A DNA stretch of 64,000 nucleotides from Patescibacteria group bacterium (GTDB taxonomy: Bacteria > Patescibacteriota > Minisyncoccia > Phycocordibacterales > UBA1006): assembly GCA_020428645.1 (NCBI GenBank), contig JAGQMN010000002.1, positions 36-64,035 on the forward strand, read 5' to 3'. The notes under the pieces were generated by a model, which searched no databases, was not told the DNA's origin, and saw nothing but the letters and a program-made list of their open reading frames with translations. The translations under genes and the position numbers were made by a program. This document shows positions 1,986-39,114 of this stretch, one piece after another. Within the stretch, counting starts at the first letter, position 1; every line of letters begins with the position of its first letter.

Positions 1986-3018
1986 CTTCGTGAATTAATA
2001 CTTCTTTGTAATCATCAATACGATCGAGCACCAAACCAGTTCCTACAACAACTGAATACAATGGATCATCAGCTACGTACACGGGAATATCGAGTTCGTG
2101 TTCAAGGAGTTCATCAAGACCACCAATGAGGGCTCCCCCACCAACGAGGTAGATACCCCGTTGCATGACATCGGAAACAATTTCAGGTGGTGTACGTTCG
2201 AGTACCTCTTTGACGCCATCAACGAGTGTTTCAATTGAGTGTGCAATAGCTTCACGAATGTCGTGGTTGTTCACTAAAATCTGACGTGGCAGACCAGTGA
2301 TGATATCACGTCCACGAATTTCTGATTCGAGGCGTTCGTGATCACTGATTGCACCAATTTTAATTTTGATGTCTTCTGCGGTCTTTTCACCAACGAGGAG
2401 TTTAAACTCATCACGGAGGTACGAGATGATATCTTGATTCAATCGGTCACCAGCAATTTTCAGATTCTTTGATTGCACAACACCTGCAAGCGAAATCACC
2501 GCGATATCAGTCGTACCACCACCAATATCAATAACCATTGACCCCAACGGTTCGAGTACGGGTAGCCCAAGACCTACGGCTGCAGCCATTGGTTCCTCGA
2601 TGATGTACACTTCGCGAGCTCCCGCATTGTGAGCTGCATCGTAGACGGCACGATGTTCAACATTCGTAATACCTGATGGTACTCCAACAATAACCCGTGG
2701 ACGAAAAAATTTCTTTGATTTAGATTCTGCTTTTCGGATGAGGTACGAGAGCATTTCTTCGGTAACATCAAAATCAGAAATCACTCCATCAACGAGTGGA
2801 CGCACCACCTCGATGTGCCCTGGGTTTCGACCGAGCATTTCTTTTGCCTCAGCACCAACAGCGACGACACGATTGGTTTTGGTATTCATAGCAACGACTG
2901 ATGGTTCATTGATTAAAACACCTTGCCCTTTCACGTGGACAAGCGTATTTGCCGTTCCTAAATCGATACCAATATCATTTGAAAAACGATTATACAGTTG
3001 TTGCATGAGTGTGTTCAT
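1963..3018 (-). CDS. mreB: rod shape-determining actin-like protein MreB
   Basis: DIGIDLGTANTLVHVKG, DIGGGTTD and YLVGGGA actin-fold motifs. I chose the internal ATG at 3018 (MNTLMQQLYNRF). The 58-codon extension in the track would overlap proS. Confidence 0.92.
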
Positions 3019-3043
3019 AATTTCACTAAGATAGTACGTGTGT

Positions 3044-4297
3044 TTACCCTTCGGTAAAGTACGCGATGAGACGTGCCGGGTCAACAAATTCGACATCTCC
3101 TGTGGCACGTTTGGTGATTTCAACACCACCTTTTTCAGCAGATTTTTCCGATACGACAATGCGGTATGGCATACCCATGAGGTCAGCATCATTCAACTTT
3201 TGACCAGGACCGAGGTCTCGATCATCAAACAGTACCTCAATACCCGCATTCTCTAAATCATGGTACAAGCTCTCGGCTTCGCGAAAAATATTTTCGTTGT
3301 TACCAAAGGTAAGAAGGTGGATCGTAAACGGTGCGATTTCTTCCGGCCATACAATACCCTTGTCATCAGCGAGGTTTTCAACAATGACACCCATTACACG
3401 TGTAATGCCAATACCATATGAACCAAGATACACAGGAATCTGTTTTCCTTCTTCACTGGTTACCAACAAATTCATATCCGCACATTTTTGAGTTCCAAAA
3501 TTAAAAATATTTCCTACTTCGGCAGTTGTTACTTTTTCAAGTTCACCTGCGGTAACCCCTAATTTTTTCAAGGTGTCATCGTTGTACACTTCATCATTAA
3601 TAGCAATTCCTTTTTCACGATTAATGTAAATTTCATCTTCACCGGTATCACAAATCGTTTGAAATTCATGGCTAAATTCAGTAAACGCTCCACCTCCTGC
3701 AAAGGTAATAAACGTATCATTACCGATACCTAAGCGATCGTAGCAGCGCTGGTATGCCTGAATAGTTTTTTGGTAGAAATCTTCATGGTGTTCTGCATCC
3801 AAAGAAAATGAATACATATCTTTCATGATAAATTCTCGTCCACGCATCATTCCCGCTTTTGCACGTAGTTCATTTCTAAATTTATTTTGAAACTGATACA
3901 CGTATGCGGGAAGATCTTTATATGAAGAGAGGTGGCTCTTCATCATTTCAGTAATTGGTTCTTCGTGTGACCAACCAAACCCTACCTCACCACCAGCGTT
4001 CAAAGTTGACTTAAACCATACATCTACAACATCATCATCCCAGCGTTTCGTTGCTGTCCATACATCCTTTGATTGTAGGCTCGACATAATGAATTCTTGA
4101 CCACCAATCGCATTCATTTCTTGGCGTACAATTTCTTTGATATTTTCAACAACCTTACTACCAAGTGGCAACAGATCGTACACACCAGCCATCTCCTTGT
4201 GAATATATCCAGCACGTATCAAAAGCTGTGCATTCTTTGATGTTTCATCACTCGGTGCTTCTTTACGAGTTTTGGTGAACAACTTGGACTGTTTCAT
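3044..4297 (-). CDS. proS: prolyl-tRNA synthetase, short bacterial-type form without the INS editing domain
   Basis: 417 aa with class II motifs (FRNELRAKAGMMRGREFIMKD, GSYGIGITR) and a C-terminal anticodon-binding domain. Its length leaves no room for the INS insertion. Confidence 0.88.
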   Translation of the reverse strand: MKQSKLFTKTRKEAPSDETSKNAQLLIRAGYIHKEMAGVYDLLPLGSKVVENIKEIVRQEMNAIGGQEFIMSSLQSKDVWTATKRWDDDVVDVWFKSTLNAGGEVGFGWSHEEPITEMMKSHLSSYKDLPAYVYQFQNKFRNELRAKAGMMRGREFIMKDMYSFSLDAEHHEDFYQKTIQAYQRCYDRLGIGNDTFITFAGGGAFTEFSHEFQTICDTGEDEIYINREKGIAINDEVYNDDTLKKLGVTAGELEKVTTAEVGNIFNFGTQKCADMNLLVTSEEGKQIPVYLGSYGIGITRVMGVIVENLADDKGIVWPEEIAPFTIHLLTFGNNENIFREAESLYHDLENAGIEVLFDDRDLGPGQKLNDADLMGMPYRIVVSEKSAEKGGVEITKRATGDVEFVDPARLIAYFTEG

Positions 4298-4514: not shown

Positions 4515-5192
4515 ATGTCAAACGTAAACGAAACACTCGTGAACGAACTCTTTGAAGCAGGTTGTTACGTTGGGTACTCAAAAACACGGCGACACCCTTC
4601 AGCACAACAATTTATTTTTGAGTCACGAAAGAAGAAAGATATCATCGACCTTGAAATGACTGCACGCCAGCTTGAGTCTGCACTCACATTTCTTAAGGAT
4701 CTTCAGGGAACTGATAAACAGGTGCTCTTTGTAGGAACAAAACCTGAGGCACGCCGACTCGTGCGCGAAGCAGCTGAACTCATTGATATGCCGTTCGTGA
4801 CTGAACGATGGCTCGGAGGAACACTTACCAACAACGCTGAAATTAAAAAGCGTGTAGAGCGACTTGCGACTCTCAGCGATCAAGCTGCGAAGGGAGAGCT
4901 CGTTGCTGCAAACAAGCGTGAAAAACTCATGCTTGAACGCGAAATTGAACGATTAGAAGTAAAATTTGGTGGTATTAAAACTATGAAGAAAACGCCAGCA
5001 GCACTCTTTATTGTTGATCCACAAAAAGAAGATATCGCGGTGACCGAAGCACGACAGATGAACATTCCAGTAATTGCACTCGCGAACACTGATTGTGATA
5101 TATCAATTCTCACCTATCCGATTGTTGCAAACGATACGAACGTGTCATCAATTGCCTTGATTACCAAGAAAGTAGCGGACGCACTTAAATAA
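4515..5192 (+). CDS. rpsB: 30S ribosomal protein S2
   Basis: 225 aa containing HFGHQTRR-like YVGYSKTRRHP, VLFVGTK and ERWLGGTLTN. Followed by tsf. Confidence 0.95.
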   Translation: MSNVNETLVNELFEAGCYVGYSKTRRHPSAQQFIFESRKKKDIIDLEMTARQLESALTFLKDLQGTDKQVLFVGTKPEARRLVREAAELIDMPFVTERWLGGTLTNNAEIKKRVERLATLSDQAAKGELVAANKREKLMLEREIERLEVKFGGIKTMKKTPAALFIVDPQKEDIAVTEARQMNIPVIALANTDCDISILTYPIVANDTNVSSIALITKKVADALK

Positions 5193-5201
5193 AATATACA
5201 T

Positions 5202-5654
5202 ATGGAAATTTCAGTAGAACAAATCAAAGCACTGCGTGAAGAAACTGGTGTATCAATTGGAAAATGTAAGGAAGCACTCACCGAGGCAAGTGGTGATATG
5301 GAAAAGGCACGAGAACTCTTGCGAGACATCTCAGCAAAAGCAGCAGCAAAAAAAGCAGATCGCGAATTGGGGGCTGGTGTTGTTGCATCGTACATTCACT
5401 CAAACAATACTATTGGCGTACTCATCAAGTTAGCGTGTGAAACCGATTATGTAGCGAAAAACGATGACTTTATGACGTTAGCAAACGATATCGCTATGCA
5501 CATTGCAGCCATGGGAACTGAATCAATTGAGGAACTTCTCGAACAACCATTTGTAAAAAATCCTGATGTTACCATTATGAAGCTCATCGAAGAGGCAACA
5601 TTGAAAATTGGTGAACGTATTGAGGTTGCTGAGTTTGTACGCTACACGGTATAA
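5202..5654 (+). CDS. tsf: elongation factor Ts, minimal 150-aa form
   Basis: N-terminal UBA-like motif (IKALREETGVSIGKCKEALTEASGDMEKA) and core motif (ASYIHSNNTIGVLIKLACETDYVAKN). In the conserved rpsB-tsf arrangement. Confidence 0.9.
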   Translation: MEISVEQIKALREETGVSIGKCKEALTEASGDMEKARELLRDISAKAAAKKADRELGAGVVASYIHSNNTIGVLIKLACETDYVAKNDDFMTLANDIAMHIAAMGTESIEELLEQPFVKNPDVTIMKLIEEATLKIGERIEVAEFVRYTV

Positions 5655-5662
5655 TCAGCACT

Positions 5663-6001
5663 ATGGTCTTTACCTACCTCTTACTCATATCAGTTATTGG
5701 ATTCGCTCTCGTCGTATTCCTCGAACATAAGAAATCAGGAAAAACATTGAGACAAGTAATACGCACCCTCGTACATTTCAATGGAACACGATACGAACAG
5801 TATATGCGTGACGCTCATGCAGTATCAAAGCGTGTTACGAACCGAGCACTCAGAACTGGTAAGAACAAGGTACACCATGTACATTCACACATGAAACAAC
5901 ACGGGAACAGTATGCGATCATTGGTACGAAAAAAATTACATCCTGAAACCGTAGCACAAGAAACGTCTCTGTTCATGAAGAGTATTAGTGATAAAGAGTA
6001 A
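5663..6001 (+). CDS. hypothetical small membrane protein, basic C-terminus
   Basis: 112-aa ORF with one N-terminal hydrophobic helix. No recognisable family. Confidence 0.4.
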   Translation: MVFTYLLLISVIGFALVVFLEHKKSGKTLRQVIRTLVHFNGTRYEQYMRDAHAVSKRVTNRALRTGKNKVHHVHSHMKQHGNSMRSLVRKKLHPETVAQETSLFMKSISDKE

Positions 6002-6145: not shown

Positions 6146-6221
6146 GCCACCTTAGCTCAGTTGGTAGAGCAACGGTTTTGTAAACCGTCGGTCGTCGGTT
6201 CGAGTCCGACAGGTGGCTCCA
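6146..6221 (+). tRNA. tRNA-Thr (anticodon UGU), CCA encoded
   Basis: Manual cloverleaf. Acceptor GCCACCT/AGGTGGC; D arm GCTCAGTTGGTAGAGC; anticodon stem ACGGT/ACCGT with loop TTTGTAA (TGT at 6179-6181); T arm GTCGGTTCGAGTCCGAC; 3' TCCA. Confidence 0.9.
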
Positions 6222-10720: not shown

Positions 10721-11794
10721 TTAATAAAAGTAACTGTTATAAAAAACTGGGGGAAGTCTAAACCAAACCTTGTTCTTTAAATTTTTAGTAAAGCGATACT
10801 CATGTGCATGACACATCATCCCTTGGTATGAATGAAGTGATTGAAACACCTTTTCTTCACCAAGTCTACCAGATTGATACGCTTCTATACGAGCATTCAT
10901 ACAACGAATCAAGCGTTTACGTGTTTTTGTTCTTAAGATGCGGTAATGCGGCTTAACAACATAACCCAAGAAATCAATACCCTGATGTAAAGTACGTACG
11001 TTTACCTTGTGTTTATGCAACGAAAGGTGAAGTTTTTCTTGGAGAAACATTTTCACTTGTAAAAGTAATGTATCAAACTCATCTTTTGAATCAGAAAGAA
11101 TGATGAAATCATCGGTGTAACGTAAGTAGTGTTGAACCTTCAATTGATGTTTTATAAACTGGTCAAACTCATTCATATAGATATTGGCAAAAAGTTGGGA
11201 TGTTAAATTTCCAATCGGAATCCCCTGTCTGTGAAAGAGATCAGTTTGCGAAACATAGTAACTTCCGACAATATCTCGCACGAGATCCATAGTGGCAACA
11301 TCACGCACACGTTTTGTCATAATGGATAACAAAATTTGATGATCGACACTATCAAAAAATTTCTTGATATCACATTTGAGAGCAAAACATGGTTTCGTAT
11401 AGTTTTGACTCACTTTTCTCGCTAACTGTGCTAGCACTTCAACACCCTCATGATTCCCCTTCCCGATTTGGCATGAGAAAGAGGTAGCGATAAAAGTAGG
11501 TTCAAATATTGTACTCAACACACGAAACAAGGCATGATGTACAATTCGATCACGAACTGACGCTTTGGAAATGTAGCGTACTTTTGGATCACGTATATAA
11601 AAATTCGTGTACGAACCATGCTGGTAAATCTTCGCCTTTAATTCTCTATGTAATGCAAAGATATTTTCTTCAAGGTGACGTTCAAAAAACGCCACATCGG
11701 GTTTGCCACGTTTTCCTTTACTAAATTTTTCCCAAGAGAGAAAAAGGTTTTCAACCGAAATTATTTGACCATATAACTGCCTGTAAATTTTCAT
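10721..11794 (-). CDS. diversity-generating retroelement reverse transcriptase
   Basis: 357 aa with RT motifs, including the DGR-diagnostic IGNLTSQ ([I/L]GxxxSQ) and the catalytic RYTDDF. Adjacent to Avd and the TR/VR pair. Confidence 0.93.
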   Translation of the reverse strand: MKIYRQLYGQIISVENLFLSWEKFSKGKRGKPDVAFFERHLEENIFALHRELKAKIYQHGSYTNFYIRDPKVRYISKASVRDRIVHHALFRVLSTIFEPTFIATSFSCQIGKGNHEGVEVLAQLARKVSQNYTKPCFALKCDIKKFFDSVDHQILLSIMTKRVRDVATMDLVRDIVGSYYVSQTDLFHRQGIPIGNLTSQLFANIYMNEFDQFIKHQLKVQHYLRYTDDFIILSDSKDEFDTLLLQVKMFLQEKLHLSLHKHKVNVRTLHQGIDFLGYVVKPHYRILRTKTRKRLIRCMNARIEAYQSGRLGEEKVFQSLHSYQGMMCHAHEYRFTKNLKNKVWFRLPPVFYNSYFY

Positions 11795-29092: not shown

Positions 29093-29638
29093 ATGACAAC
29101 TATAGTCCAAGTAGGAAAAAAAGTGCTCCGCATGAAAGCACAAGAAGTACCAAAAGATGCTATTGCCTCGCCCGAAATACAGGGTGTGATAGCGCGTATG
29201 AACGAAGCGCTCGCCACCCAAAATGATGGGGTTGCTATTGCCGCACCACAAATTGGTGAATCCTATCGTATCTTTACGATTTCACCTGTTGTATTTGAAG
29301 AACCTGGTGATTACCATTTGGTCTACATCAATCCTGAAATAATGGAGGTGTCTAAGAAAACAAAGCTCTTGAATGAAGGGTGCCTCTCGTGTCGTTGGAA
29401 AATTGGCGATGTAGAAAGACACCTAACGGCAACGGTTCGGGCATATGACGAATATGGTAACCAATTTACTGAATCAGCTGACGGACTCCTCGCACATATT
29501 TTCCAACACGAAACCGATCACCTTGATGGTATTCTCTTTATCGACAAAGCAGAAAATCTGCGCGATATGACTGAGGAAGAAATTAATGAGGTACTCCAAG
29601 AAAATGCATCCCCACGGTACGACCAAATTAAAGACTAA
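29093..29638 (+). CDS. def: peptide deformylase
   Basis: 181 aa from the ATG at 29093: GVAIAAPQIG, EGCLS, HETDHLDG. The track ORF starting at 28937 is an upstream extension that overlaps hisS. Confidence 0.93.
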   Translation: MTTIVQVGKKVLRMKAQEVPKDAIASPEIQGVIARMNEALATQNDGVAIAAPQIGESYRIFTISPVVFEEPGDYHLVYINPEIMEVSKKTKLLNEGCLSCRWKIGDVERHLTATVRAYDEYGNQFTESADGLLAHIFQHETDHLDGILFIDKAENLRDMTEEEINEVLQENASPRYDQIKD

Positions 29639-29650
29639 CAGAAAAAAATA

Positions 29651-29679
29651 AAAACCACAGCCAAATGGCTGTGGTTTTT
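29651..29679 (+). terminator. intrinsic terminator after def
   Basis: AAAACCACAGCC-AAAT-GGCTGTGGTTTTT. Confidence 0.8.
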
Positions 29680-29752
29680 ATTGAACATGTCACAAACTAA
29701 ATTATGCTATGTGAACATATTTATACGTCATAACATAGTGGTATGAAATAAT

Positions 29753-29855
29753 TAAGAGAGGTTCTCTGTCATTCAGCGACAGATCGGGCGATGATACTTC
29801 ATCTAAGTATCATCGCCCGAATCCGGGACTGAATAGAATACCTCGTGTATCTATT
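29753..29855 (+). repeat. island end motif, copy 1 (TAAGAGAGGTTCT plus hairpins)
   Basis: TAAGAGAGGTTCTCTGTCATTCAGCGACAGATCGGG-[hairpin 29785-29819]-CCCGAATCC. Same architecture as 31119 and, inverted, 35528. Confidence 0.7.
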
Positions 29856-30019
29856 TTCTTCCTCCCCTCACTTTTACTAGACAGCAAAAGTGAGGGGATA
29901 AAAAAGTCGAATTTTACCTGACTGGATGGTATTCAACAAGACCATAACCTATTTAATTAAGATGCTCATCCCGAAGGATTCCCGAAATGGCTTTGCCATT
30001 TCGGGACCTAAACCTAGGT
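29856..30019 (-). repeat. island junction module J1
   Basis: Read on the minus strand: stop, 18-nt palindrome, hairpin 29980-30006, CCUUCGGG 29968-29979, degenerate AT hairpin, TTTTTTAT, variable hairpin 29864-29897, AGGAAGAA. Confidence 0.6.
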
Positions 30020-30415
30020 TTAGGATTTTTTTAACTTCGCTCCCCAACTATCAGCGAGGTTCTCTAGGGTTGGATCTTTTTTCTCTGATTTTTTAAAAAA
30101 ATCTTTCCCTACGGCAACCTCCTGGTCAGGACAATCTCTCTCGTTTACAAAACGAGAGGCAATCTCTTCTGCCCAGCCTAAGGGTGCAATGAGGAGTTTC
30201 CAACCCTCGCTTCCAGAACCTCCATACGTAGTAGTCTCCGATAAAATTCTAAGATTATTATCAGAATGAACAGAGAAAGCTGGCCATCTTTTTGCTCCGG
30301 ATCCCGGTCTATACTCTTGAACCAGGACAAGTTCTTGATTACAAGAACTTTTTTCATCAATTTCTCTCAAAAAGATTTTATCTTCTGAGGAAATGAAAAC
30401 ATTAGCAGCATACAC
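30020..30415 (-). CDS. hypothetical protein (island gene A)
   Basis: 131-aa ORF with a GTG start (uncertain). No recognisable family. Lies between the intact def and the displaced def 3' fragment. Confidence 0.45.
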   Translation of the reverse strand: MYAANVFISSEDKIFLREIDEKSSCNQELVLVQEYRPGSGAKRWPAFSVHSDNNLRILSETTTYGGSGSEGWKLLIAPLGWAEEIASRFVNERDCPDQEVAVGKDFFKKSEKKDPTLENLADSWGAKLKKS

Positions 30416-30453
30416 ATATCCCTCACTCTTATTGGAGGTTGCGAGATGGTTTT

Positions 30454-30546
30454 GATCACCTCGACGGTGTATTGTTCATCGACAAAGCACGTAAATTACG
30501 CGACATGACTGATGAAGAAATTAATGAGGTTTTACAGAAAAAATAG
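30454..30546 (+). pseudogene. displaced 3' fragment of a peptide deformylase gene
   Basis: Translates to DHLDGVLFIDKARKLRDMTDEEINEVLQKK*, which parallels def residues DHLDGILFIDKAENLRDMTEEEINEVLQEN (29516-29605). By eye about four fifths of nucleotides are identical. No 5' part is present. Confidence 0.85.
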
Positions 30547-30547
30547 T

Positions 30548-30995
30548 ATGGAAAAATTCAACGACAATCAAAAAAAAAGAGAAAGAGCCTGAGTTCGATG
30601 AGTTTCCAAAAGAATTTGGTAGATACTATCATGGTTCACCGCATAACGTAGAGGAATTATTAAGTCCAAAAGAAAGCGGAAATATTAGACCTGGTGAGGA
30701 AGTGAGACGATCTTTTAAGGATGTAGTATTTCTCACTAAGGATATACAACAAGCGGTACAATATGCTGGTCCTGGTGGAGTAGTCTACCATGTAGATGCT
30801 GACGCAGTCCGGTACAAAGACATTGCTGCTACATATCTCAATCCTAAAAAACTAAAATCAGTGAGCGAAAATATTTATGTTGCAAAACCTGAAGATATCG
30901 AAATGGTAGTCAAGTGGGTAAAGCAAGCAAATAGAAGAAAAAATGAACCTGAAAAGTATGTGGATTACTATGTTAAGAAATCACCTGAGCGATAG
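30548..30995 (+). pseudogene. frameshifted small gene (island gene F) with a YHGSP motif; broken or slippage-dependent at an A9 tract
   Basis: The ATG at 30548 opens a 14-codon frame that stops at 30590. The long frame (open from 30528, ending at 30995) has no ATG/GTG/TTG before 30702. Losing one A from the A9 run at 30570-30578 fuses the two into about 149 aa. Confidence 0.6.
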
Positions 30996-31052
30996 TAGAC
31001 CAACGTATTTATTGTGTCGATTTTTACTCAAAGTCATAAACAATTAACGAGG

Positions 31053-31092
31053 ACTCGTCTCCTATCAAACTTTTGTTTAAGTGGAGACGAGT
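31053..31092. terminator. hairpin between gene F and end motif copy 2
   Basis: ACTCGTCTCC-(20 nt)-GGAGACGAGT, a 10-bp stem. No clean T-run, so terminator function is tentative. Confidence 0.4.
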
Positions 31093-31118
31093 ACCAGCTA
31101 TAGTAACTAATACTTCAA

Positions 31119-31232
31119 TAAGAGAGGTTCTCTGTCATTCAATGACAGGTCGGGTGGTAATCATGATATGTAATCATGATTACCACCCGAATTTGTAATT
31201 CAATAATATTCTCACTTATATGCACAGAAACG
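31119..31232 (+). repeat. island end motif, copy 2
   Basis: TAAGAGAGGTTCTCTGTCATTCAATGACAGGTCGGG-[hairpin 31151-31189]-CCCGAATTT. The flanks are identical to copy 1, while the internal hairpin has a different sequence and is still fully paired. Confidence 0.7.
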
Positions 31233-31335
31233 TTCTTCCTCCGACACCACTTCTCTTCTTAACTTATGAAAAGAAGTGGTGTCGGATAAAAAAGGCAATT
31301 TTTTGAAGAAATTGCCAGAAAACTTTATGCACTAA
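31233..31335 (-). repeat. island junction module J2
   Basis: Minus sense: stop, AAAGTTTTCT, hairpin GGCAATTT/AAATTGCC (31294-31316), TTTTTTAT, variable hairpin 31241-31285, AGGAAGAA. Confidence 0.6.
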
Positions 31336-32382
31336 TTAAGAATTTAAAAATTTTTCCATTATAATTTCTGCTTCGTAATCATCATCCAAATTCTTGTCAC
31401 AAAAATCATATCTTTGTGTTGTTTGTAAATTACGATAAAAAAACTTTTCTCTTTCTTCTAAAGACATTTCTTTGAAGAAATTCATTATAGGATTATTTTT
31501 TAATTGCTTATAATGATCCTGCAACTTTTTTTCAAGTTTTTTCATTTCTGATAAAATTTTTTTCATTGTAACAATGTCATATTCTGAGTGTTTTACTGGT
31601 TGTTTTTTTAAACACCTCGTCACACGTTTATTGCCTGATGATTCGCGATATCCATCAGGCATCGAAGAGGGGTCAGAGACAAGAATATCTTCACTTGCTC
31701 TTAATACCCATTTATTACCTTCAAACACAGCAGCACAACCCCAAGAAATTTTGAATAGCTCTTTATTGTGGTATTTTCTAAATTTCTCAAAAACCTTTGG
31801 TTTTTGAGGTACAATTGTTGTATTGTTTAGAAACGCGCTGATGATGACCTCTGTTGGAAAATTAAACTTAAGTAGACTACTTATTTTCCGGGTGGTGAAG
31901 TCAGACGAGCAAAAACTTCTATTCAAAGATTTATATCTTTTGATAATAGCCCTTCTTGTACGAATCACATCTTTATTCGGTTTGAATTGATGGATATGTC
32001 CATATGTTAACTGTAATTCTTCTTTTTTAAGATTATTACAATAAACTTGAAAATCTATTTGTTCTTTTGATAAAGTCTTCCTTAAAGACTCTGATCTAGC
32101 ATATAGAAAATCTATGGCTTCTTTTTTGCTTATTCTTTTCAAATACACAACTGGATGCACTTTGTCTGGATACTTGATTGCTCTTTTCTCCAAATCAATA
32201 CAAGAGCTTTCAGCTCCACTTAAAATTTTATAAGCCTCCTCCACATAAGAGAGATAGTATTCTGCATATTGATAATTTTCAACTCTGTCATCTTCATTAA
32301 ATGAATAATAAGGAGTATGAATTACCTTTACATTAATTTTATTTTCCTTTCTGTGAATAAGGAATGAACTATTTTTTGACAT
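31336..32382 (-). CDS. hypothetical protein (island gene B), very AT-rich
   Basis: 348-aa ORF with no recognisable motifs. Confidence 0.55.
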   Translation of the reverse strand: MSKNSSFLIHRKENKINVKVIHTPYYSFNEDDRVENYQYAEYYLSYVEEAYKILSGAESSCIDLEKRAIKYPDKVHPVVYLKRISKKEAIDFLYARSESLRKTLSKEQIDFQVYCNNLKKEELQLTYGHIHQFKPNKDVIRTRRAIIKRYKSLNRSFCSSDFTTRKISSLLKFNFPTEVIISAFLNNTTIVPQKPKVFEKFRKYHNKELFKISWGCAAVFEGNKWVLRASEDILVSDPSSMPDGYRESSGNKRVTRCLKKQPVKHSEYDIVTMKKILSEMKKLEKKLQDHYKQLKNNPIMNFFKEMSLEEREKFFYRNLQTTQRYDFCDKNLDDDYEAEIIMEKFLNS

Positions 32383-32389
32383 AATTTAT

Positions 32390-32445
32390 ATATTTAAACG
32401 TTAGCCAAAACTTCCATCAGAAAGCCAAAGCTAACGTTTAAATAT
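32390..32445 (-). promoter_or_regulatory. start-proximal leader hairpin of gene B
   Basis: 16-bp perfect stem ATATTTAAACGTTAGC/GCTAACGTTTAAATAT with a 24-nt loop that begins TTTGG on the minus strand. Ends 7 nt before the ATG. Confidence 0.6.
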
Positions 32446-32638
32446 GATCATGAAATATTTTCTACAGGCAGGTTTTGCCGTTGGCAAAACCTGCCTGATA
32501 AAAAAGATAATGTTTTGTTTTTAGGCTCCATTATCAAAAGACCTTTATATAATATTTACTCCACACCACGTGGAAATTTTATTTCCCCGAAGGGTTAGCA
32601 TTCTTGGAAACCAATCCAAGAATGCTATTTTAGAAACA
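32446..32638 (-). repeat. island junction module J3
   Basis: Minus sense: stop, hairpin 32596-32627 (loop TTGGTT), CCCUUCGGGG 32585-32594, GATAATG/CATTATC hairpin, TTTTTTAT, variable hairpin 32465-32497, TAGAAAAT. Confidence 0.6.
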
Positions 32639-33463
32639 CTATGATTGCGTTCCACCAGCAAAACCCCGGTTCGGATTCCCGTAAGTATCCGAAATTCCGA
32701 GATCCGCAGCATTATCTAAAAATGCTTGAACGGTGGCTGCGTCACCGTTTAGCATTACCTTCTGCTCAAATCCTGGACGTGAGTCCACGTGAGCGAGAAA
32801 GCTTTTACCGGTCATGGTGCCGGCCTCTACCATAAATGGTAGAGCTCCATTTTTGCGGAAATCAGGAACCTCCTGATCCCCAACGGTAATGGTTGCCGTT
32901 GGATTTTCCAAAAGCGCTACGCACTTTTGGATTTCCTTTTTCGCTTCGTCTTCGCTTACGCGTTGACGAGCACATAGTTCGGGCAAACGAATTGCCAGAA
33001 CTTCCTCGGGCGTTACCCCAGGGCACTCGCCCTGGTACGCCGCGCCGAGGCAGTGATCAGCTGCAGCAATCACTCGCTGCTTTTGATCCAGTTGCAGACC
33101 AAGCAAGTCTGCAACCTGCCCCAGTGAGCTCCCTGCCTCAAAATCGGCAGGGGTAGCCGCAAACCCGGGGTCTCCAGGTTTGTGGTGGTCAACCACGATT
33201 TTTTCCTGCTTGATAGAATAACTATCAGCAGGGGTACACTCGATCAGAACCATCTGATCAAATGCGTCCACCTCGATTTCTTCTCCATTTTTGGAGATAA
33301 TTGAAGTGAATTTCCCGGCAGTGTCGGGGAAACACCGTTTAGTATTTCCTTCCCTGTCGGGTGCCGCGGCATAACCAACGGCAATATTTTTTTGTGCAAG
33401 CAATGCTTCTATTGCTTGCATTTCGATGTCGTTAGCACCGAGGATAAAAATTTGATTGCTCAT
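32639..33463 (-). CDS. hypothetical protein (island gene C), possible DHH-like phosphoesterase; visibly higher G+C than its neighbours
   Basis: 274 aa. VVDHHKPGDPG resembles DHH motif III, and there are N-terminal ILGANDIEM and C-terminal FAGG motifs. Assignment is weak. Confidence 0.55.
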   Translation of the reverse strand: MSNQIFILGANDIEMQAIEALLAQKNIAVGYAAAPDREGNTKRCFPDTAGKFTSIISKNGEEIEVDAFDQMVLIECTPADSYSIKQEKIVVDHHKPGDPGFAATPADFEAGSSLGQVADLLGLQLDQKQRVIAAADHCLGAAYQGECPGVTPEEVLAIRLPELCARQRVSEDEAKKEIQKCVALLENPTATITVGDQEVPDFRKNGALPFMVEAGTMTGKSFLAHVDSRPGFEQKVMLNGDAATVQAFLDNAADLGISDTYGNPNRGFAGGTQS

Positions 33464-33777
33464 ATTTTTATACTCTGCTGGGACAGAGATTCTATTTATT
33501 CCCAGAATTACTGAATTTTTTGCGGAGAATTACAGTCATGCTCCGTCTCGCTATCTGCCACGCTGGTGTCCCCACCTTTTGCAGAAATGTTATGCGTGGT
33601 ACTTGGCTGCGCCGTTCCTCGCGAGATTTTCTATGAGTTTTCTACCGAGATTGCTTTGCTTTCGCTCGCAATGACACGGTACAAAACTCAATAAAAAAGT
33701 CGATTTTTGAAAAGAATCGACAGAAACTTTTTAACCAATCTGAAACCATAGGCACCATACCTGCGGTTTCAAAAAAA
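33464..33777 (-). repeat. island junction module J4 plus a GC-rich structured leader of gene C
   Basis: Minus sense: stop, hairpin, TGGTTAAAAAGTTTCT, hairpin 33699-33721, TTTTTTATT, long hairpin 33635-33689, ATAGAAAAT, then nested helices CTCGC/GCGAG (33547-51 with 33621-25), CCACGC/GCGTGG (33558-63 with 33594-99) and GGTG-TCCC-CACC (33565-76). Confidence 0.55.
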
Positions 33778-34509
33778 CTAAGATTCCCAAATTAACTCTG
33801 GAATCAAAACTCCAGAGTGACGAATCAGAAAAATAATATCCTCTACCATTTTGAGAGGGTATTTTTTTCTTAACTCCATTTCATAATACTCCAGGGCTGT
33901 TTCCAGCCCATATTCTCTTTCAAGATTTTCAAAAAAATCTGAATTCAGAGTATCCCCCTCACCCTTACCAGAAATAAGGTCTTGGTAAGATACCCCTACT
34001 TCCTTTAATCTCTCTCGAGCCTCAAAGAAAAATAAAATAGTTTTCTTTTCTTCTTCGCTCGTTTTAAGGATCTCAAGATAATCCTCGAGATCCTTTGAAC
34101 GCCCCTCCGCTAAAAGGGCTTTTTCTTTCTTATGTCGTATTGCAAACTCACGACTGCAATACGCTGGATTTTTTTGATCAGCTTCTGGTAGCTGATCATT
34201 TACGAGAATATCAACGACCCTTTGGTCGTCTTTTCCTAATAGAAGTCCCGCGTCGAGGACCTCTGTCCATTTCATAAACCCCGAAGGACTCTCGAGGTGT
34301 TTGGTTGTGGATCCATCCTGAAAGTCCATCGTGGCTATCAGGATCTTTTTTATTTTTTCCATGTCCTTGGTCGAGGACACTATCACGTCAACGTCTCTTA
34401 TCTCCCTCGAGATAAGATTGTGTTTTTTAAGAACCATAGAACCTACGATTCTTAAATTTATTTTTTTTGAAATGTTTTCCAACATCTCAGTAATTTTGAT
34501 ATTTTTCAT
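33778..34509 (-). CDS. Pol-beta superfamily nucleotidyltransferase-domain protein (island gene D)
   Basis: 243 aa. RIVGSMVLKKHNLISREIRDVDVIV fits the hG[GS]-x(9-13)-DhD NTase signature. Helical C-terminal half. Confidence 0.6.
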   Translation of the reverse strand: MKNIKITEMLENISKKINLRIVGSMVLKKHNLISREIRDVDVIVSSTKDMEKIKKILIATMDFQDGSTTKHLESPSGFMKWTEVLDAGLLLGKDDQRVVDILVNDQLPEADQKNPAYCSREFAIRHKKEKALLAEGRSKDLEDYLEILKTSEEEKKTILFFFEARERLKEVGVSYQDLISGKGEGDTLNSDFFENLEREYGLETALEYYEMELRKKYPLKMVEDIIFLIRHSGVLIPELIWES

Positions 34510-34516
34510 GGTTTTA

Positions 34517-34567
34517 ATTTTAAAGTTACCTAAAATCTCTAACAGAGACCAAAGGTAACCTTAAAAT
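34517..34567 (-). promoter_or_regulatory. start-proximal leader hairpin of gene D
   Basis: 14-bp stem (one mismatch) ATTTTAAAGTTACC/GGTAACCTTAAAAT with a 23-nt loop that begins TTTGG on the minus strand. Ends 7 nt before the ATG. Confidence 0.6.
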
Positions 34568-34720
34568 AATACTTATGAAAATATTTCAGGTTTTCTTCCT
34601 TCGGTGGATTTTACTACATAAAACCCACCGAATAAAAAAGTCGATTTTTGAAAAGAATCGACGGAACTTTTTAACCATTCCCCGAAGGGAACCCAAGCCA
34701 GCGACCAAGCTGGCTTGGGT
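34568..34720 (-). repeat. island junction module J5
   Basis: Minus sense: stop, hairpin 34691-34720 (loop TTGGTC), CCCUUCGGGG 34680-34689, TGGTTAAAAAGTTCC, hairpin 34640-34662, TTTTTTATT, variable hairpin 34601-34631, AAGGAAGAA. 34632-34677 is near-identical to 33691-33737. Confidence 0.65.
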
Positions 34721-34957
34721 CTATTGCCAGAATTTCCATGTTTCTATGCTATTTCTAATCTGGCGTATTTCCTCTCTGGTAAGTTCCTCTACCGAGGAAC
34801 TTGTTTGAATGGATTTGATCATGTTAAAGAAGTTTTGAACTTCTTTAACTTCATCGATCAGACGACATTTCGCCTGAAAACTCTACTTCCCTTTCTCTGA
34901 AAGGGATTCCACTAGATGCTGGTTGCATCTTTCTAATTCTTGTTTTAAATTTCCCAT
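34721..34957 (-). pseudogene. small helical ORF (island gene E) interrupted by an in-frame TAG
   Basis: Own translation: MGNLKQELERCNQHLVESLSEKGK*SFQAKCRLIDEVKEVQNFFNMIKSIQTSSSVEELTREEIRQIRNSIETWKFWQ*. The amber codon at 34883-34885 is in frame with the ATG at 34957 and the stop at 34721. Confidence 0.4.
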
Positions 34958-34961
34958 TTTA

Positions 34962-35048
34962 CTTGTTTTGGTGAACTTTGGTTTCTTACTCAGATTCTGA
35001 ATCAAGTCCAGAATGATAAACCAAAAAACCAAAGTTCACCAAAACAAG
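34962..35048 (-). promoter_or_regulatory. start-proximal 23-bp perfect inverted repeat upstream of gene E
   Basis: CTTGTTTTGGTGAACTTTGGTTT (34962-34984) pairs with AAACCAAAGTTCACCAAAACAAG (35026-35048). The 41-nt loop begins TTTGG on the minus strand. Ends 4 nt before the ATG. Confidence 0.6.
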
Positions 35049-35515
35049 ATAAATATGAAAAGCTCTCTTGAAATTTCCAAATCATTTGGGATTCCAAGAG
35101 AGTGTGACGTAGTCAAATGTATGATGTTGTTTGACTACCTCCCACTCTCTTTCAAGAGTTTGTGTCCAGCGGTAGTTCATACTTCTGCTGCGCGTGTTGT
35201 TCGCCCGTCGTCAAAGTATGATCTACGTGGTATGAAATTATTAAGGTACCATCCTTTCTTCACCTCTCTTACATTAGCAACCCGAGATTCTGAAGCTGTC
35301 TGCCCTTAGGTAGGACGATGTCAGAATGACGAGCGACTTGGTAAAGAAATTTCTGGAGACGAAGGTGGTTAGTCTTCCCCGTCCAGCAGATTTCTTTATC
35401 AATCTGTCTTTATCAGATATCCACCAGTGACGAGTTCCGGTCGTGTGGTAGATTCTGAATGGAACGGTTGGTGTGCCCTCAGCGCCGTTTGCACCAACCC
35501 CGTATTGATTTGCAA
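35049..35515 (-). other. ORF-free region rich in paired segments (candidate large ncRNA or element-end structure); strand uncertain
   Basis: No ORF of 60 aa or more that I trust. There are many nested inverted repeats, e.g. CTCTCTTGAAA/TTCCAAGAGAG, GAGAGTG/CACTCTC enclosing GTAGTCAAA/TTTGACTAC, and GGTTGGTG/CACCAACC. Confidence 0.35.
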
Positions 35516-35528
35516 AGAACCTCTCTTA
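35430..35528 (-). repeat. island end motif, inverted copy
   Basis: The reverse complement reads TAAGAGAGGTTCTTTGCAAATCAATACGGGGTTGGTG...CACCAACCGTTCCATTCAGAATCTACC. Its 13-nt terminus matches 29753 and 31119, followed by the same CGGG-hairpin-CCG layout. Confidence 0.6.
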
Positions 35529-35691
35529 GTCTCGTACATATCGTAGCATGTGCTTGACATAGTGTCAATACAGTGTGACCATATTTTACAAACTATGAAT
35601 AATATTATGACATTGTATTAAAAAATATTGATTTTCAATACGATTTAGTCATGTGCTTGTGACATTTTAAATCTTTTGGTACTATACCAGT

Positions 35692-36459
35692 ATGGAAAAT
35701 ACGCAAACCATACAACAGCTAGAGACCTTAGGACTCTCTCGTGAACAATCACTGGTATACCTCTGCCTGCTCGATAACGGGTTTAGCAAGGCTGGTAGCA
35801 TACCGAAAAAGACAGGTTTGAAACGGGGTTTGGTGTATAAAGTTCTCGATCAGCTCATTGAACGCGGGCTTGCCAAAAAACACGGGGAAGATACTGCGGT
35901 TGCACGCTTTGCCCCACTCTCTCCTGAAGGATTAAAATCACTCGTGGAAGAGAAACTTCGAGCTGCTGAAGCACACCAGGAACTCTTTAAGGATCTCTAC
36001 AGCCCACTTAAATCTAAATTCAATCTGTTAACGGGACGGCCAAGTGTACGGTACTACGAGGGTCACGATGAGGTTCGAGAGATGCTTTACGACTGTCTCG
36101 AAACAACAGGCGTCATCTACACCTACGCTGATGCCGACATGGTAGCCGAACACTTTCCTGATTTAAATAAGGAACATATTGCCGAAAGGCATGAACGCGG
36201 TATCGCAAAGAGAATTCTTGTTGCAGACAGCAAACACGGTCGACAGACCAAGAAGGACTCGCTGAAAGACGATCTAACCGACATACGGATTATCGAAAAA
36301 GAATATCTCCCCTTTAGCGCCGTTGCAGAAATATACGACAATAAAGTTGCCTATATTACCTCATCAGATATTGGAATATCTGGGGTATTGATTGAAGATC
36401 GACAAATTGCCACCATGCAAAAATTTATGTTTGAAGCTCTGTGGGAGCAATCACAATAG
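35692..36459 (+). CDS. TrmB-family transcriptional regulator
   Basis: 255 aa with an N-terminal winged helix (LETLGLSREQSLVYLCLLDNGFSKAGSIPKKTGLKRGLVYKVLDQLIERGL) and a TrmB-type C-terminal domain. Confidence 0.75.
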   Translation: MENTQTIQQLETLGLSREQSLVYLCLLDNGFSKAGSIPKKTGLKRGLVYKVLDQLIERGLAKKHGEDTAVARFAPLSPEGLKSLVEEKLRAAEAHQELFKDLYSPLKSKFNLLTGRPSVRYYEGHDEVREMLYDCLETTGVIYTYADADMVAEHFPDLNKEHIAERHERGIAKRILVADSKHGRQTKKDSLKDDLTDIRIIEKEYLPFSAVAEIYDNKVAYITSSDIGISGVLIEDRQIATMQKFMFEALWEQSQ

Positions 36460-36492: not shown

Positions 36493-39114
36493 CTATTCTG
36501 CTTGTTTTTCGTCAGGGTTAAGTTCTCGTTTATGCTCTAACACAACATAGTGCTTTCCTGTTGTATTATCAGTAAAGGAATGTGTCATAACGCCATGTTC
36601 CAATTGTGATCTATCAAAATCACGAGGATTATCGAGCACTAGAATATCAATACCTTTGGCGGTACTATATTCACCACTTCTAATTCCTTCTCGGGTAAAA
36701 CTCCGAGATAAGTAGCTGGTGTTTGCTTGATTATCCCAAACCAAATTAAGTGCATGAACACCTTCATACTTTGCAGCGGAAACAGCAACGAATCCCATGT
36801 CCAAGTATCGAGAACAAGCACTACCTGACATGTTTGCTTCAGCGTGTAGTACGTGTTCGTGAGCTTCTTTGGTTAATGCCTGAGCAATCATCGCCTCTCC
36901 TAATGCGTAGCCTTGAGATTCTTTTGCTACGTTTAACGCGCTGGCAAATTTACTTCCGTCTGGATTTGATTCAAAACGAATAAACGCATTAAGTTCATTA
37001 TTGATGCGATAAGTATAAAATTCACTATTGGTTTTGCTTTGAAAAGCTGTAGTAAATTGATTGATGAGTATGTGTCTCGTTTGGGGATCATACTGTTTAT
37101 TGTTTTCAGTATAGATCTCCAACATCTCCATCTGTTCCGGGATAGAGATGTCAGCGATATTTTTATGTTGAAACTCGGAACCCTTAATATCCTCTAACGT
37201 TAAATCAAAACCAAGTTTTCGAGCAAATTTAAAAGTAGAGAGTGTTGCTATAGCATCAGCAGAAATCTTCGATAATTCATTTTCAATAAGATGAACGGTG
37301 TCTAGTGTATCTGTTTCTTTGAGTGCATCGATGCGATTATAAAAAATATTTAATACGCTCACGCCTTTTTGTAGAATATTATCACAAACCCGGTCGATGA
37401 TTTCTGGATCATCTGCAATCTCATGAGAAAATTCTGATGTAATAAATGCCTCTATCCCCTTGGTTGCATCCACCAGTTCTGAATATTTAGTAAAAATAGC
37501 GTTTGCTGATTCTGAGGGAAGCTTTTCTGCAAGATCAAGAATTTTTTGACTCATTTCTGACCCACCAATATCAAGAGAAAGAAAAGCGCGTAAAATATTG
37601 TTACTATTCAAATCTTCATTTTTTAAGATAGTTTCAAGGGTGTTCCATTCATTTTGTTTTGTACCAGCTAGATAGTCGAGAAATTGTACCTGTTCATCAA
37701 GATACATTTCCCTCACATCAACACCAAACTCATGTTTGATTATCCATCTTACTTCAGGTGTATGCATAGATGAGATTAAACCAGCGTCTTTATTTTTAAT
37801 AACCTCGTTATACGGTGCGGGATGCACCGTAATTCTATTCTTCAATTTTTCATGAAGATATTTTTTCATGACAAAATAATCAAGTGATAATAACTCTTTC
37901 TTCTTTTTTTGAAATTGTTGAGCAATTTCTGGACTCTGATTTTTAATGTTCCAATCACAATAATCCAATCGATCACGGAGAAAAAATGAAAAATCAGTCT
38001 CATTGAGTTCATCTACATTTTTTCCTAAACCCTTACTTTCTTGCAAAAACGAGAGGAGGTCTTGATAGGTATGGTCATATACTTCGGCATTAACCCCTTC
38101 GAAAAAAACATTATTATTTTGAGTTCGGTAATCTTGAGAGACAAACAACCCAAAGGAAGATTGTAAACCATTAGAAAGGGAAAAATAATCTTTGGACACC
38201 TGTTGGATCCCTGCTGATCGATAGAAAGGGGAATTTAAATTTTCAACATAGTATCGAGTAGCGTTTTCTAAATGTTCATTATTGTTCGTGGTTATATTAT
38301 CATAATGACTATGTAAAAATTCACTTACCTCTCCGGTTTCCTCTTGTTTTTCTAAATCTTCAATGAGATGTAAATTGTAGTCAGCAAGTAAGTTTAATAA
38401 GGGTAGATTAAACTCTTCTTTGATACAGTGAATTATTTCAATACCTTTTAGATATGCATGGTGTGCACTCTCGTAACCTACACTCTGTGCATCAAGAGTA
38501 ATTCTTGCAATCGTTTTTAAAAAAATAATCTTTTTTTCATCTGAAAGAGATTGTACATAGTGTTTTATAGAATCACTAAGAGAATTTTCATATTCGAAAG
38601 ATATATTATAAACAACTTCTCCTGTGGTATGGTAGACAAGATTGTCCATACATCCAGAATTATTCATCTCCCCTAAAGCCAAAAAATAATTATTAACATC
38701 ATACGAAAGAAGTGGGGCAAGAATATTTGGACTACGCCCAAAAAAGTTTTCCTTAACAAATTGAATAAAATCATCTTTTTTTGATATTTCTATTTCTTGA
38801 GAGTAAAAAATTTCTTCTAGCTTATCTCTTAACAAGAGAACAAACTCATGGGTAAGGTCTGAGACTTCTTTTGTGACCAAATGATCTTCAGGACCACTCC
38901 CAAGTAGCGTTTTCATTTTTCGTTCAATGGGATTGGAAAAATACTTATTATCCCCATCAAGAGATCCAGACAAAAGAGTATCAAAGTAATCTTGGGTAAA
39001 TGTTCTGAATTCAGTTTTAATGTCTTCAAAATTTTCAATATGCTCTTTCACTTCAGGATTGACATTATTAAATTCTTTTTTCGTATTATCTTTTTTATAA
39101 GCCTCAGGATTCAT
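36493..39114 (-). CDS. large hypothetical protein with a probable C-terminal GNAT acetyltransferase domain
   Basis: 873 aa. The last ~170 aa carry a GNAT motif-A-like ESQGYALGEAM in a beta-alpha context. The N-terminal ~650 aa have no recognisable family. Confidence 0.5.
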   Translation of the reverse strand: MNPEAYKKDNTKKEFNNVNPEVKEHIENFEDIKTEFRTFTQDYFDTLLSGSLDGDNKYFSNPIERKMKTLLGSGPEDHLVTKEVSDLTHEFVLLLRDKLEEIFYSQEIEISKKDDFIQFVKENFFGRSPNILAPLLSYDVNNYFLALGEMNNSGCMDNLVYHTTGEVVYNISFEYENSLSDSIKHYVQSLSDEKKIIFLKTIARITLDAQSVGYESAHHAYLKGIEIIHCIKEEFNLPLLNLLADYNLHLIEDLEKQEETGEVSEFLHSHYDNITTNNNEHLENATRYYVENLNSPFYRSAGIQQVSKDYFSLSNGLQSSFGLFVSQDYRTQNNNVFFEGVNAEVYDHTYQDLLSFLQESKGLGKNVDELNETDFSFFLRDRLDYCDWNIKNQSPEIAQQFQKKKKELLSLDYFVMKKYLHEKLKNRITVHPAPYNEVIKNKDAGLISSMHTPEVRWIIKHEFGVDVREMYLDEQVQFLDYLAGTKQNEWNTLETILKNEDLNSNNILRAFLSLDIGGSEMSQKILDLAEKLPSESANAIFTKYSELVDATKGIEAFITSEFSHEIADDPEIIDRVCDNILQKGVSVLNIFYNRIDALKETDTLDTVHLIENELSKISADAIATLSTFKFARKLGFDLTLEDIKGSEFQHKNIADISIPEQMEMLEIYTENNKQYDPQTRHILINQFTTAFQSKTNSEFYTYRINNELNAFIRFESNPDGSKFASALNVAKESQGYALGEAMIAQALTKEAHEHVLHAEANMSGSACSRYLDMGFVAVSAAKYEGVHALNLVWDNQANTSYLSRSFTREGIRSGEYSTAKGIDILVLDNPRDFDRSQLEHGVMTHSFTDNTTGKHYVVLEHKRELNPDEKQAE

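Follow-up and report, generated by a model that had tools for sequence, protein, structure and literature searches.

We analysed a window of 64,000 nucleotides (nt), meaning the whole stretch of contig JAGQMN010000002.1 from a Patescibacteria group bacterium (assembly GCA_020428645.1), and describe a gene-free segment in it that lies between a 243-amino-acid (aa) gene (33778-34509, minus strand) and the divergently oriented gene of a TrmB-like regulator. The source contig belongs to a metagenome-assembled genome of Patescibacteria (candidate phyla radiation), with near-identical copies in several public assemblies. One side of the segment carries rpoB, rpoC, dnaG, rpoD, trmD, lepB, hisS and def, and the other fmt, truB and others, and from these neighbours we concluded that the window is core chromosome. 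We placed an RNA gene of about 478 nt at 35056-35533 on the minus strand, at almost the same coordinates as the original prediction, which had suspected a large structured non-coding RNA there. Conservation, covariation, a promoter of its own and a terminator-like end bear out that suspicion, and the segment is very probably a genuine structured RNA gene of the minus strand. It is a conserved, structured, non-coding element that is under selection at the RNA level on this strand and is tied to the genes of the TrmB-like regulator and of a large GNAT-domain protein.

The segment was said to hold no credible open reading frame (ORF), and we observed that the longest one between the 243-aa gene and the TrmB-like gene is indeed 98 aa. 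Neither this frame (plus strand, 35013-35309) nor the longest frame of the minus strand (53 aa, 35399-35560) is kept in any of the 11 homologous loci compared. Stop codons occur in all frames of 12 homologues, at 2-19 per 470 nt, and no ORF is shared among them. Six-frame translations of the segment gave no Pfam match. Therefore, with no conserved frame in the homologues and no such match, a coding or decayed gene was rejected. The ORFs of 84-165 aa that gene callers have placed over the RNA in several public assemblies (L007 2-256, L018 88-585 and L005 1609-1863, where L numbers denote homologous loci) are spurious, which corrects the annotation record.

When the region 35040-35540 was folded as RNA, the minus strand gave -160.5 kcal/mol against -122.6 +/- 5.8 kcal/mol for dinucleotide shuffles (z = -6.55), and the plus strand gave a z of -4.88; none of the shuffles matched the real fold. 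All the inverted repeats listed in the original prediction were found within a few bases of where it had put them (Table 1). Its description of the segment as richer in G+C than the surroundings holds for the immediate flanks (0.42-0.47 inside versus 0.36-0.37) and fails for the adjacent TrmB gene, which is as GC-rich.

Table 1. Features of the RNA gene and its neighbours (window coordinates, in the order of the RNA from its 5' side where applicable).
Feature	Position	Strand	Remarks
-35 hexamer TTGACA within palindrome TTGACActaTGTCAA	35554-35568	-	Promoter scan; probable TrmB-like operator
-10 hexamer TACGAT, extended -10 TG	35540-35545	-	Predicted start near 35533
TAAGAGAGGTTCT	35516-35528	-	
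M1, 5' motif UAAGAGAGGUUCU (UGAGAGAGGUUCUUU in homologues)	35516-35528	-	About 10 nt past the predicted start
H1 hairpin	35467-35501	-	Length and sequence variable
GGTTGGTG/CACCAACC	35467-35474 / 35492-35499		
S1a GUUCC (35461-35465), long helix P3, 4-bp hairpin S2 (35430-35444)	35412-35465	-	
CAGAT/ATCTG/CAGAT	about 35387-35418		
Central domain: invariant A4 (UGAUAAAGAAAUCU), hairpin Pb/Pc, invariant A5 (AAUUUCUUUACCAA)	35335-35406	-	
P5 closing helix AAGU...ACUU, variable hairpin with GUCAUUCUGA..UCAGAAUC mini-palindrome	35272-35336	-	By eye
M2, second motif UAAGAGAGGUGAAGAAAG	35254-35271	-	Central linker; complementary to A5
D2 hairpin, conserved internal loop UGAYGAC / GCAGCAGA, inner stem GGGCG..CGCGC	35172-35226	-	
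CATACTT/AAGTATG	inside arms 35172-35184 / 35214-35226		
3' domain: X0 CUCUUG, X1 AAGAGAGUG.., X2 ..CACUCUCUUG, X3 CAAGAGAG (35063-35070), U-rich tail (35050-35062)	35050-35163	-	
Inverted-repeat strands CTCTCTTGAAA; TTCCAAGAGAG; TTTCAAGAG	35063-35073; 35092-35102; 35150-35158		
22-nt arms	35096-35117 / 35130-35151		
Hairpin with 38-nt arms after the RNA	34950-35060	-	3' arm holds AUG of next minus-strand ORF
TrmB-like helix-turn-helix regulator	35692-36459	+	PF01978, E 6.7e-10; divergent; RNA-linked in 14/14 lineages
873-aa protein, C-terminal GNAT-like domain	36493-39114	-	Weak Pfam Acetyltransf_10; third conserved member of the neighbourhood

Wherever TrmB homologues of 52-68% aa identity were found, each was accompanied by a gene-free gap of 490-840 nt in the same place, divergent from the TrmB gene. 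These gaps share 67-80% nucleotide identity with the window over 250-520 nt, and are thus at least as conserved as the adjacent protein gene. Searches with nhmmer recovered 12 distinct sequences (E 1e-40 to 1e-103), and a gap was present upstream of the TrmB-like homologue in all examined loci, from 68% down to 39% protein identity, in 14 distinct lineages. Three further loci (L026, L030 and L033, one of them in Candidatus Campbellbacteria) came to light when GTDB genomes and JGI metagenomes were scanned for exact matches to a motif taken from the alignment. At the two loci with TrmB identities of 39-40% (L045 and L047), the gap is 1.0-1.1 kb long, and the palindromic -35 region, the central hairpin and GA-rich repeats are present in it; a covariance model to which neither locus had contributed matched L045 with 47.5 bits (E 4e-9) and L047 with 44.2 bits (E 3e-8). 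The RNA is absent from a locus whose TrmB homologue has 32% identity. No relatives were returned when GTDB genomes were scanned with the single TrmB-like protein as query.

The GNAT-domain protein is homologous in L007, L010, L013, L045 and L047, so that the RNA, the TrmB-like regulator and this protein form the conserved set and travel together. A homology search with the full-length protein gave no matches, and one with its C-terminus gave 2 proteins; there were no sequence matches for it in NCBIfam, PADLOC or PDB. Its AlphaFold model has low confidence (predicted local distance difference test score 64), and Foldseek returned only generic GNAT folds, with E values above 0.001.

Covariation supports at least six helices. 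Compensatory changes were looked for among the homologues by counts on a manual structural alignment, in some of which anchor-defined columns were padded with N to hold the register, and by RNAalifold; the helix counts come from 6-12 sequences, partly close relatives, so that the shuffle controls are optimistic. The four pairs of S2 are standard in 12/12 sequences, with 17 compensatory cells. S2 lies within P3, whose sequence differs in almost every lineage; cognate P3 duplexes have a mean of -11.8 kcal/mol versus -5.2 +/- 2.6 kcal/mol for non-cognate (cross-species) ones. The loop of S2 (YYGGAAC) can also pair with S1a (GUUCC): 60/60 cells of this S1 pairing are paired, and the sole variable pair changes from G:C to A:U in L007 and L030. 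This interaction is a candidate pseudoknot or alternative helix.

In the central domain (35335-35404), 26 pairs have 94.6% of their cells paired and 9 pairs are changed on both sides. None of 500 shuffles reached any of five measures, and slid registers were 37-55% paired. All the compensatory changes of this domain fall in its two inner tiers, which are capped by the invariant heptaloop CUAACCA of Pb/Pc (35366-35372). D2 comprises 17 pairs (81% paired, 9 changed on both sides, 0/500 shuffles). The 3' domain, found only in the window's subgroup, is terminator-like and bistable, and its X1:X2 hairpin (35096-35151) is 89.9% paired with 6 compensatory pairs in six sequences. For six full-length sequences, RNAalifold predicted 103 pairs and showed compensatory changes in 20 of these. 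The covariance model scored the window at 84.6 bits on the minus strand versus 26.6 on the plus strand (overall, 77-94 versus 27-45), and several pairs vary through G:U, which is tolerated on the minus strand only. From the asymmetry of the model scores and the G:U tolerance, we concluded that the RNA strand is the minus strand. Two further readings of this part were discarded: a pairing of the CUAACCA loop with a UGGUU beside S1a is not conserved, being absent, for example, from the window itself, and the internal loop of D2 does not match, by eye, the consensus of a K-turn or box C/D motif.

The most conserved stretches are purine blocks (M1, A4, M2, X1 and X3) and pyrimidine blocks (the M1 tail, A5, X0 and X2), which are complementary to one another in more than one combination. 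The partner of A4 can be either A5 or an upstream YAGAUUU (Alt1); in the latter case A5 pairs with M2. Alt1 is 95% paired with two compensatory pairs, a level reached by 27 of 500 shuffles, and Alt1 together with A5:M2 makes up the minimum-energy fold in 10/10 homologues, by 1.3-6.7 kcal/mol. In the 3' domain, the states X0:X1 + X2:X3 and X1:X2 + X0:X3 differ by at most 1.3 kcal/mol in 6/6 species, and X3 is paired before the U-tract in both. A simple terminator/antiterminator switch was rejected for this domain, since its terminator strand, X3, is paired either way. As the invariant blocks never vary, covariation cannot prove their pairing; their invariance is the outcome expected of constraints from multiple partners.

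A sigma-70-type promoter (TTGACA-17-TACGAT with a TG upstream) reads into the segment on the minus strand, from 35568 to 35540. The palindrome around its -35 hexamer is kept in 12 homologues and occurs once in the window, and the homologues align with TGnTATAGT at the -10 position. From its sequence, the TTGACAnnnTGTCAA palindrome is the likely operator of the TrmB-like regulator, whose gene lies 160 bp away in divergent orientation, and this protein would then control the RNA promoter. The promoter with its palindromic, operator-like -35 region is conserved in 12 loci, and the RNA is linked to the divergent regulator gene in 14/14 lineages. At the other end, a stem CUCUCUUG...CAAGAGAG (35070-35063) is followed by CUUUUCAUAUUUAU, and the transcript probably ends at this hairpin and U-tract, near 35056. 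In L010, a strong hairpin followed by U6 stands right after the core.

The 5' motif M1 belongs to a repeated element, UGAGAGAGGU, of which there are 2-4 copies per RNA across the homologues. A third copy (M3) sits in the apical loop of X1:X2 in L007, L014, L015 and L018 and was lost from the window; in the distant loci, AGAGGAGAGAG is present 3-5 times. UGAGAGAGGU resembles a Shine-Dalgarno sequence, and 0/41 long ORFs of the window have such a sequence upstream. Many of these ORFs show a TATAAT-like box 6-8 nt before the start codon, and leaderless mRNAs appear to predominate in this genome; the motif is therefore no ordinary ribosome-binding site in this organism. The original prediction had also placed the segment at the inverted end of an island, with a terminal motif. 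This motif does exist: the window contains the 13-mer TAAGAGAGGTTCT in three exact copies, at 29753 (plus), 31119 (plus) and 35528 (minus). It is the promoter-proximal 5' motif both of the large RNA and of a pair of small RNA-like elements on the far side of the variable genes, so that inward-facing promoters with a common motif bracket the variable block from def to the TrmB-like gene. It marks the end of a variable gene block, not a demonstrated transposon terminus.

The small RNA-like elements that open with TAAGAGAGGTTCT / UGAGAGAGGU span 29753-29915 and 31119-31326 (both plus), and equivalents occur in L010 (about 449-640, plus) and L013 (about 770-880, plus), one always just after def. 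Behind the motif comes a long hairpin with covarying arms (conserved base UCGGGYG...CRCCCGA); UUCUUCCUCC, a further hairpin and a bidirectional terminator complete the element.

Downstream of the RNA, the genes of its strand differ among the lineages and have no Pfam families. The hairpin with 38-nt arms after the RNA persists, with altered sequence, in L007, L013, L014, L015 and L018. A DHH-family phosphoesterase gene with the motif CDHHNPGD is found downstream in three lineages, namely in the window (274 aa, 32639-33463, minus), in L010 (306 aa, 2419-3339) and in L045 (338 aa, 4878-5894), with PADLOC matches to DHH_CorA / C3a116 at E 1e-8 to 1e-9. The first downstream gene of L047 (5436-5969) resembles a DEDDh exonuclease by eye (FDAETNG...HNPLYD) and has no Pfam or PDB matches.

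The segment had been held to match none of tmRNA, SRP RNA, 6S RNA and group I/II introns, and the searches agree. A scan of the whole window with the 4227 covariance models of Rfam 15 at the gathering threshold returned only a tRNA at 6146-6218. With E values up to 10 over the local 1.4 kb, only generic miRNA-type hairpin matches on 34950-35060 appeared; the flank 29600-34400 gave nothing relevant, and ARAGORN found 0 tRNA or tmRNA genes in 34000-36000. The T-box model (RF00230) did not match at E up to 10, and the downstream genes are unrelated hypothetical proteins. For a type III toxin-antitoxin RNA, no tandem repeats were seen, and the variable downstream genes include no matching family. 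We found no description of the present RNA in the full-text literature on structured RNAs of Patescibacteria. It therefore lies outside every family tested and is a new family, contained in no Rfam entry.

A link to mobile elements, which had been proposed from the ornate pairing, did not hold up. No transposase or integrase is encoded nearby, the neighbours are core genes, and there is no similarity to the RNA among GenBank phages and PLSDB plasmids (blastn) or IMG/VR contigs; the fixed position of the RNA beside the TrmB-like gene in all examined lineages also opposes it. An integron-like cassette platform was considered in view of the hairpin junction modules, which have conserved flanks, and a cassette-like deletion, and was rejected, there being no recombinase in the neighbourhood.

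Other explanations of the segment have to be weighed against these data. That it is a decayed protein gene or a chance cluster of inverted repeats is hardly credible: a stretch of 83 codons without stops on the minus strand (35277-35525) and a plus-strand frame with just two stops across the segment, both TAG, would suit a former gene, but the homologues have no open frame and no frame has a Pfam match, the alignment has indels that do not come in multiples of three, the substitutions in helices are compensatory, and shuffles never fold equally well. It is also very improbable that a known family (RNase P RNA, tmRNA, 6S RNA, T-box, group I/II intron, OLE, GOLLD, ROOL, raiA or HEARO) has diverged here beyond recognition. 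Size and ornate structure alone would fit, and some homologues have in their central hairpin a GGAAAGUC that is reminiscent, by eye, of CR-I of RNase P; against this stand the Rfam 15 and ARAGORN results, and a housekeeping RNA would be unexpected beside the operator of a regulator and a block of variable genes. Only slightly less improbable is a DNA-level element, such as a terminal inverted repeat or a recombination site, with folding as its by-product. In its favour are the inverted 13-mer TAAGAGAGGTTCT on both sides of the variable block, likewise in L010 and L013, the junction module repeated between variable genes, the exact absence of the 243-aa gene between 48-nt direct repeats in L005 and the duplicated 3' end of def. 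Yet the neighbourhood in the window has no integrase or transposase, conservation and covariation span about 400 nt, far more than a terminal repeat, and compensatory changes with G:U and strand-asymmetric model scores indicate selection on RNA; moreover, the element is fixed beside the TrmB-like gene although the wider context differs in L045 and L047.

The main rival is a long cis-acting leader of the riboswitch or attenuator type, which we regard as a real if distinctly less probable alternative. Its core of roughly 350 nt would sense a signal and gate read-through or processing into the same-strand genes, whose start codons would be buried in the hairpin with 38-nt arms. Same-strand genes do follow the RNA directly in every locus, with the AUG of the next ORF in or just past the long hairpin, and the mutually exclusive pairings (Alt1, A4:A5 and A5:M2, and the isoenergetic X0-X3 states in 6/6 species) are of the kind that such a leader would use. 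The recurrence of the DHH-family gene in three lineages, at varying distance, together with the DEDDh-like gene of L047, hints at a regulon related to nucleotides or nanoRNA. On the other side, the first downstream genes are non-homologous between loci and without Pfam families, X3 is paired in both states with no clear antiterminator, and the terminator of L010 comes straight after the core. Between the RNA and the DHH gene of the window stand terminators, a small ORF and the 243-aa gene, the last of these in most strains, and this DHH gene has a conserved upstream element of its own.

Set against these alternatives, we lean slightly towards a stand-alone regulatory or ribonucleoprotein RNA under the control of the TrmB-like regulator. 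We consider the chances about even that it acts as a discrete RNA rather than as a leader; it may be released as an RNA of about 480 nt, as the positions of the predicted promoter and terminator-like hairpin suggest. Several points weigh against this preferred reading. The start, the end and the strand of the RNA are deduced from sequence signals and covariation. The alignment comprises 12-14 sequences, some of them close relatives, and the shuffle controls overstate significance. No compensatory changes were seen in the pairings A4:A5, A5:M2, X0-X3 and M1 with the 3' end, which are thus unproven, and no intramolecular partner of M1 was found that is consistent across species. In several species the downstream ORF starts in or just after the 38-nt-arm hairpin, which fits a leader equally well. 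Finally, a simple role of the motif as a ribosome-binding decoy or sponge is doubtful, because the genes of this genome lack Shine-Dalgarno sequences.

According to the reading that we prefer, the RNA would be made from the sigma-70 promoter with its operator palindrome whenever the TrmB-like protein permits. It would then present a modular order of single-stranded M1, H1, P3 with its capping hairpin, the CUAACCA hairpin, M2, D2 and the bistable 3' domain. The GA-rich motifs and the invariant loop could be docking sites for a partner protein or RNA, and the invariant purine and pyrimidine blocks might let the RNA switch between alternative pairings; the adjacent variable genes would be the likely targets. 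As a mechanism, docking or a sponge-like action is put forward tentatively and is, at best, rather unlikely. More speculative still, and to our minds improbable, the RNA could be the sensor and switch of an undescribed module made up of a large multi-state RNA, the TrmB-like regulator and the GNAT-domain protein of roughly 900 aa. In these ultra-small Patescibacteria, such a module would gate the expression of a hypervariable gene block of the conflict type. Since DHH genes of a nanoRNase-like kind are found repeatedly downstream and L047 has a possible DEDDh exonuclease gene, the signal to which the RNA responds might be derived from nucleotides. The RNA would then represent a new class of very large riboswitch-like or ribonucleoprotein RNAs and not an ordinary small RNA.

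We compared the element with regulatory RNAs of known types. RNAIII/agr, OxyS/OxyR, GcvB/GcvA and SgrS/SgrR are regulatory RNAs encoded divergently from a regulator. The present RNA shares with the RNAIII/OxyS type the back-to-back position with a transcription-factor gene and an operator-like palindrome in the shared intergenic region, and with the RNAIII of S. aureus (about 514 nt) its large size, many hairpins and a short repeated motif. It differs in showing no similarity of sequence or structure, in encoding no peptide and in that no target pairing was found, though no genome-wide search aimed at targets was made. Moreover, the repeats of RNAIII are C-rich loops that bind ribosome-binding sites, whereas those described here are GA-rich and occur in a genome without Shine-Dalgarno use. 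CsrB and RsmZ are protein-sponge RNAs with many A(N)GGA motifs in hairpin loops, bound by their partner CsrA/RsmA. Several short purine-rich motif copies in single-stranded linkers and an apical loop are a point of likeness; however, the motif here is UGAGAGAGGU, in only 2-4 copies, which falls short of a sponge, and outside these motifs the RNA is conserved and structured to a much greater degree.

With riboswitch, T-box and attenuator leaders, the element has in common its location 5' of same-strand genes, mutually exclusive helices and a terminator-like hairpin. In contrast to them, its downstream genes are not conserved, the terminator stem is formed in both states and there is neither a T-box sequence nor an Rfam hit; with 350-480 nt, it is also well above most riboswitch aptamers. 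STAB-SD elements are 5' mRNA stabilisers, for example that of B. thuringiensis cryIIIA. Here, too, a Shine-Dalgarno-like sequence lies near the 5' end of the transcript, as it does in the elements at 29753 and 31119, but the motif recurs internally, no translated gene follows directly and the host apparently does without Shine-Dalgarno initiation.

Large and highly conserved structured RNAs are rare in bacteria. To our knowledge, each class described earlier (RNase P, tmRNA, OLE, ROOL/GOLLD, HEARO) proved to do something unusual. Patescibacteria account for a large part of bacterial diversity and have tiny genomes with little regulatory machinery, and we know of almost no characterised non-coding RNAs in them. 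OLE, GOLLD, ROOL, raiA and HEARO are large ornate bacterial RNAs whose functions are unclear or have been glimpsed only recently (PMC12286853, PMC10861870). The RNA described here resembles them in its length of hundreds of nt, covarying helices, invariant loops, narrow range and conserved gene neighbourhood; it differs from them in having no Rfam match, in its patescibacterial host, in lying beside neither tRNAs nor prophages and in its link to the TrmB-like and GNAT-domain genes. Its retention beside the same regulator and the same GNAT-domain protein, next to fast-changing genes, suggests an important control point. With a defined promoter, ends, invariant loops and a covariance model, the family is now testable.

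The variable block downstream of the RNA shows further features. The hairpin after the RNA has a counterpart at 34503-34581; the two, each with 38-nt arms, are 74% identical to one another, and the 3' arm of each sequesters the AUG of the next minus-strand ORF. Directly after the RNA, a small ORF (MGNLKQELER..., 34737-34960, minus) contains one in-frame TAG and then runs on for another 50 codons until a strong terminator is reached at 34691-34720, which makes it a possible pseudogene or a candidate for read-through. The 274-aa DHH gene is immediately preceded by a conserved non-coding element (33460-33632, minus) that is 75-79% identical to L010 3257-3434, upstream of the DHH homologue there, and to sequences in L036 and L033. 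It has no Rfam match and may be a separate cis-regulatory RNA.

Junction modules lie between the variable genes at 29856-29915, 31233-31326, 32458-32517, 33650-33737 and 34591-34677. Read on the minus strand, they consist of a terminator hairpin with U6, a second hairpin of variable sequence and GGAGGAAGAAA. Direct repeats of 48 nt (33690-33737 and 34631-34677) flank the 243-aa gene, which is precisely missing in L005 (Logan SRR7638748). The last 89 nt of def (29516-29604) are duplicated with 78% identity at 30454-30542, 938 bp downstream, pointing to an earlier insertion or replacement event at this end of the gene. Loops of the RNA and junction hairpins also contain insertions of a family of mini-palindromes (GTCATTCTGA-N-TCAGAATC and GTCATTGCGAGCGAAAGCAAAGCAATC), in the window at 35285-35330 and about 33655-33690 and also in the RNA loci of L015 and L026; these have the look of small miniature inverted-repeat transposable elements or repetitive extragenic palindromes. 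Elsewhere in the window, a reverse transcriptase of 357 aa (RVT_1, E 2e-23) is encoded among core genes at 10721-11794 on the minus strand.

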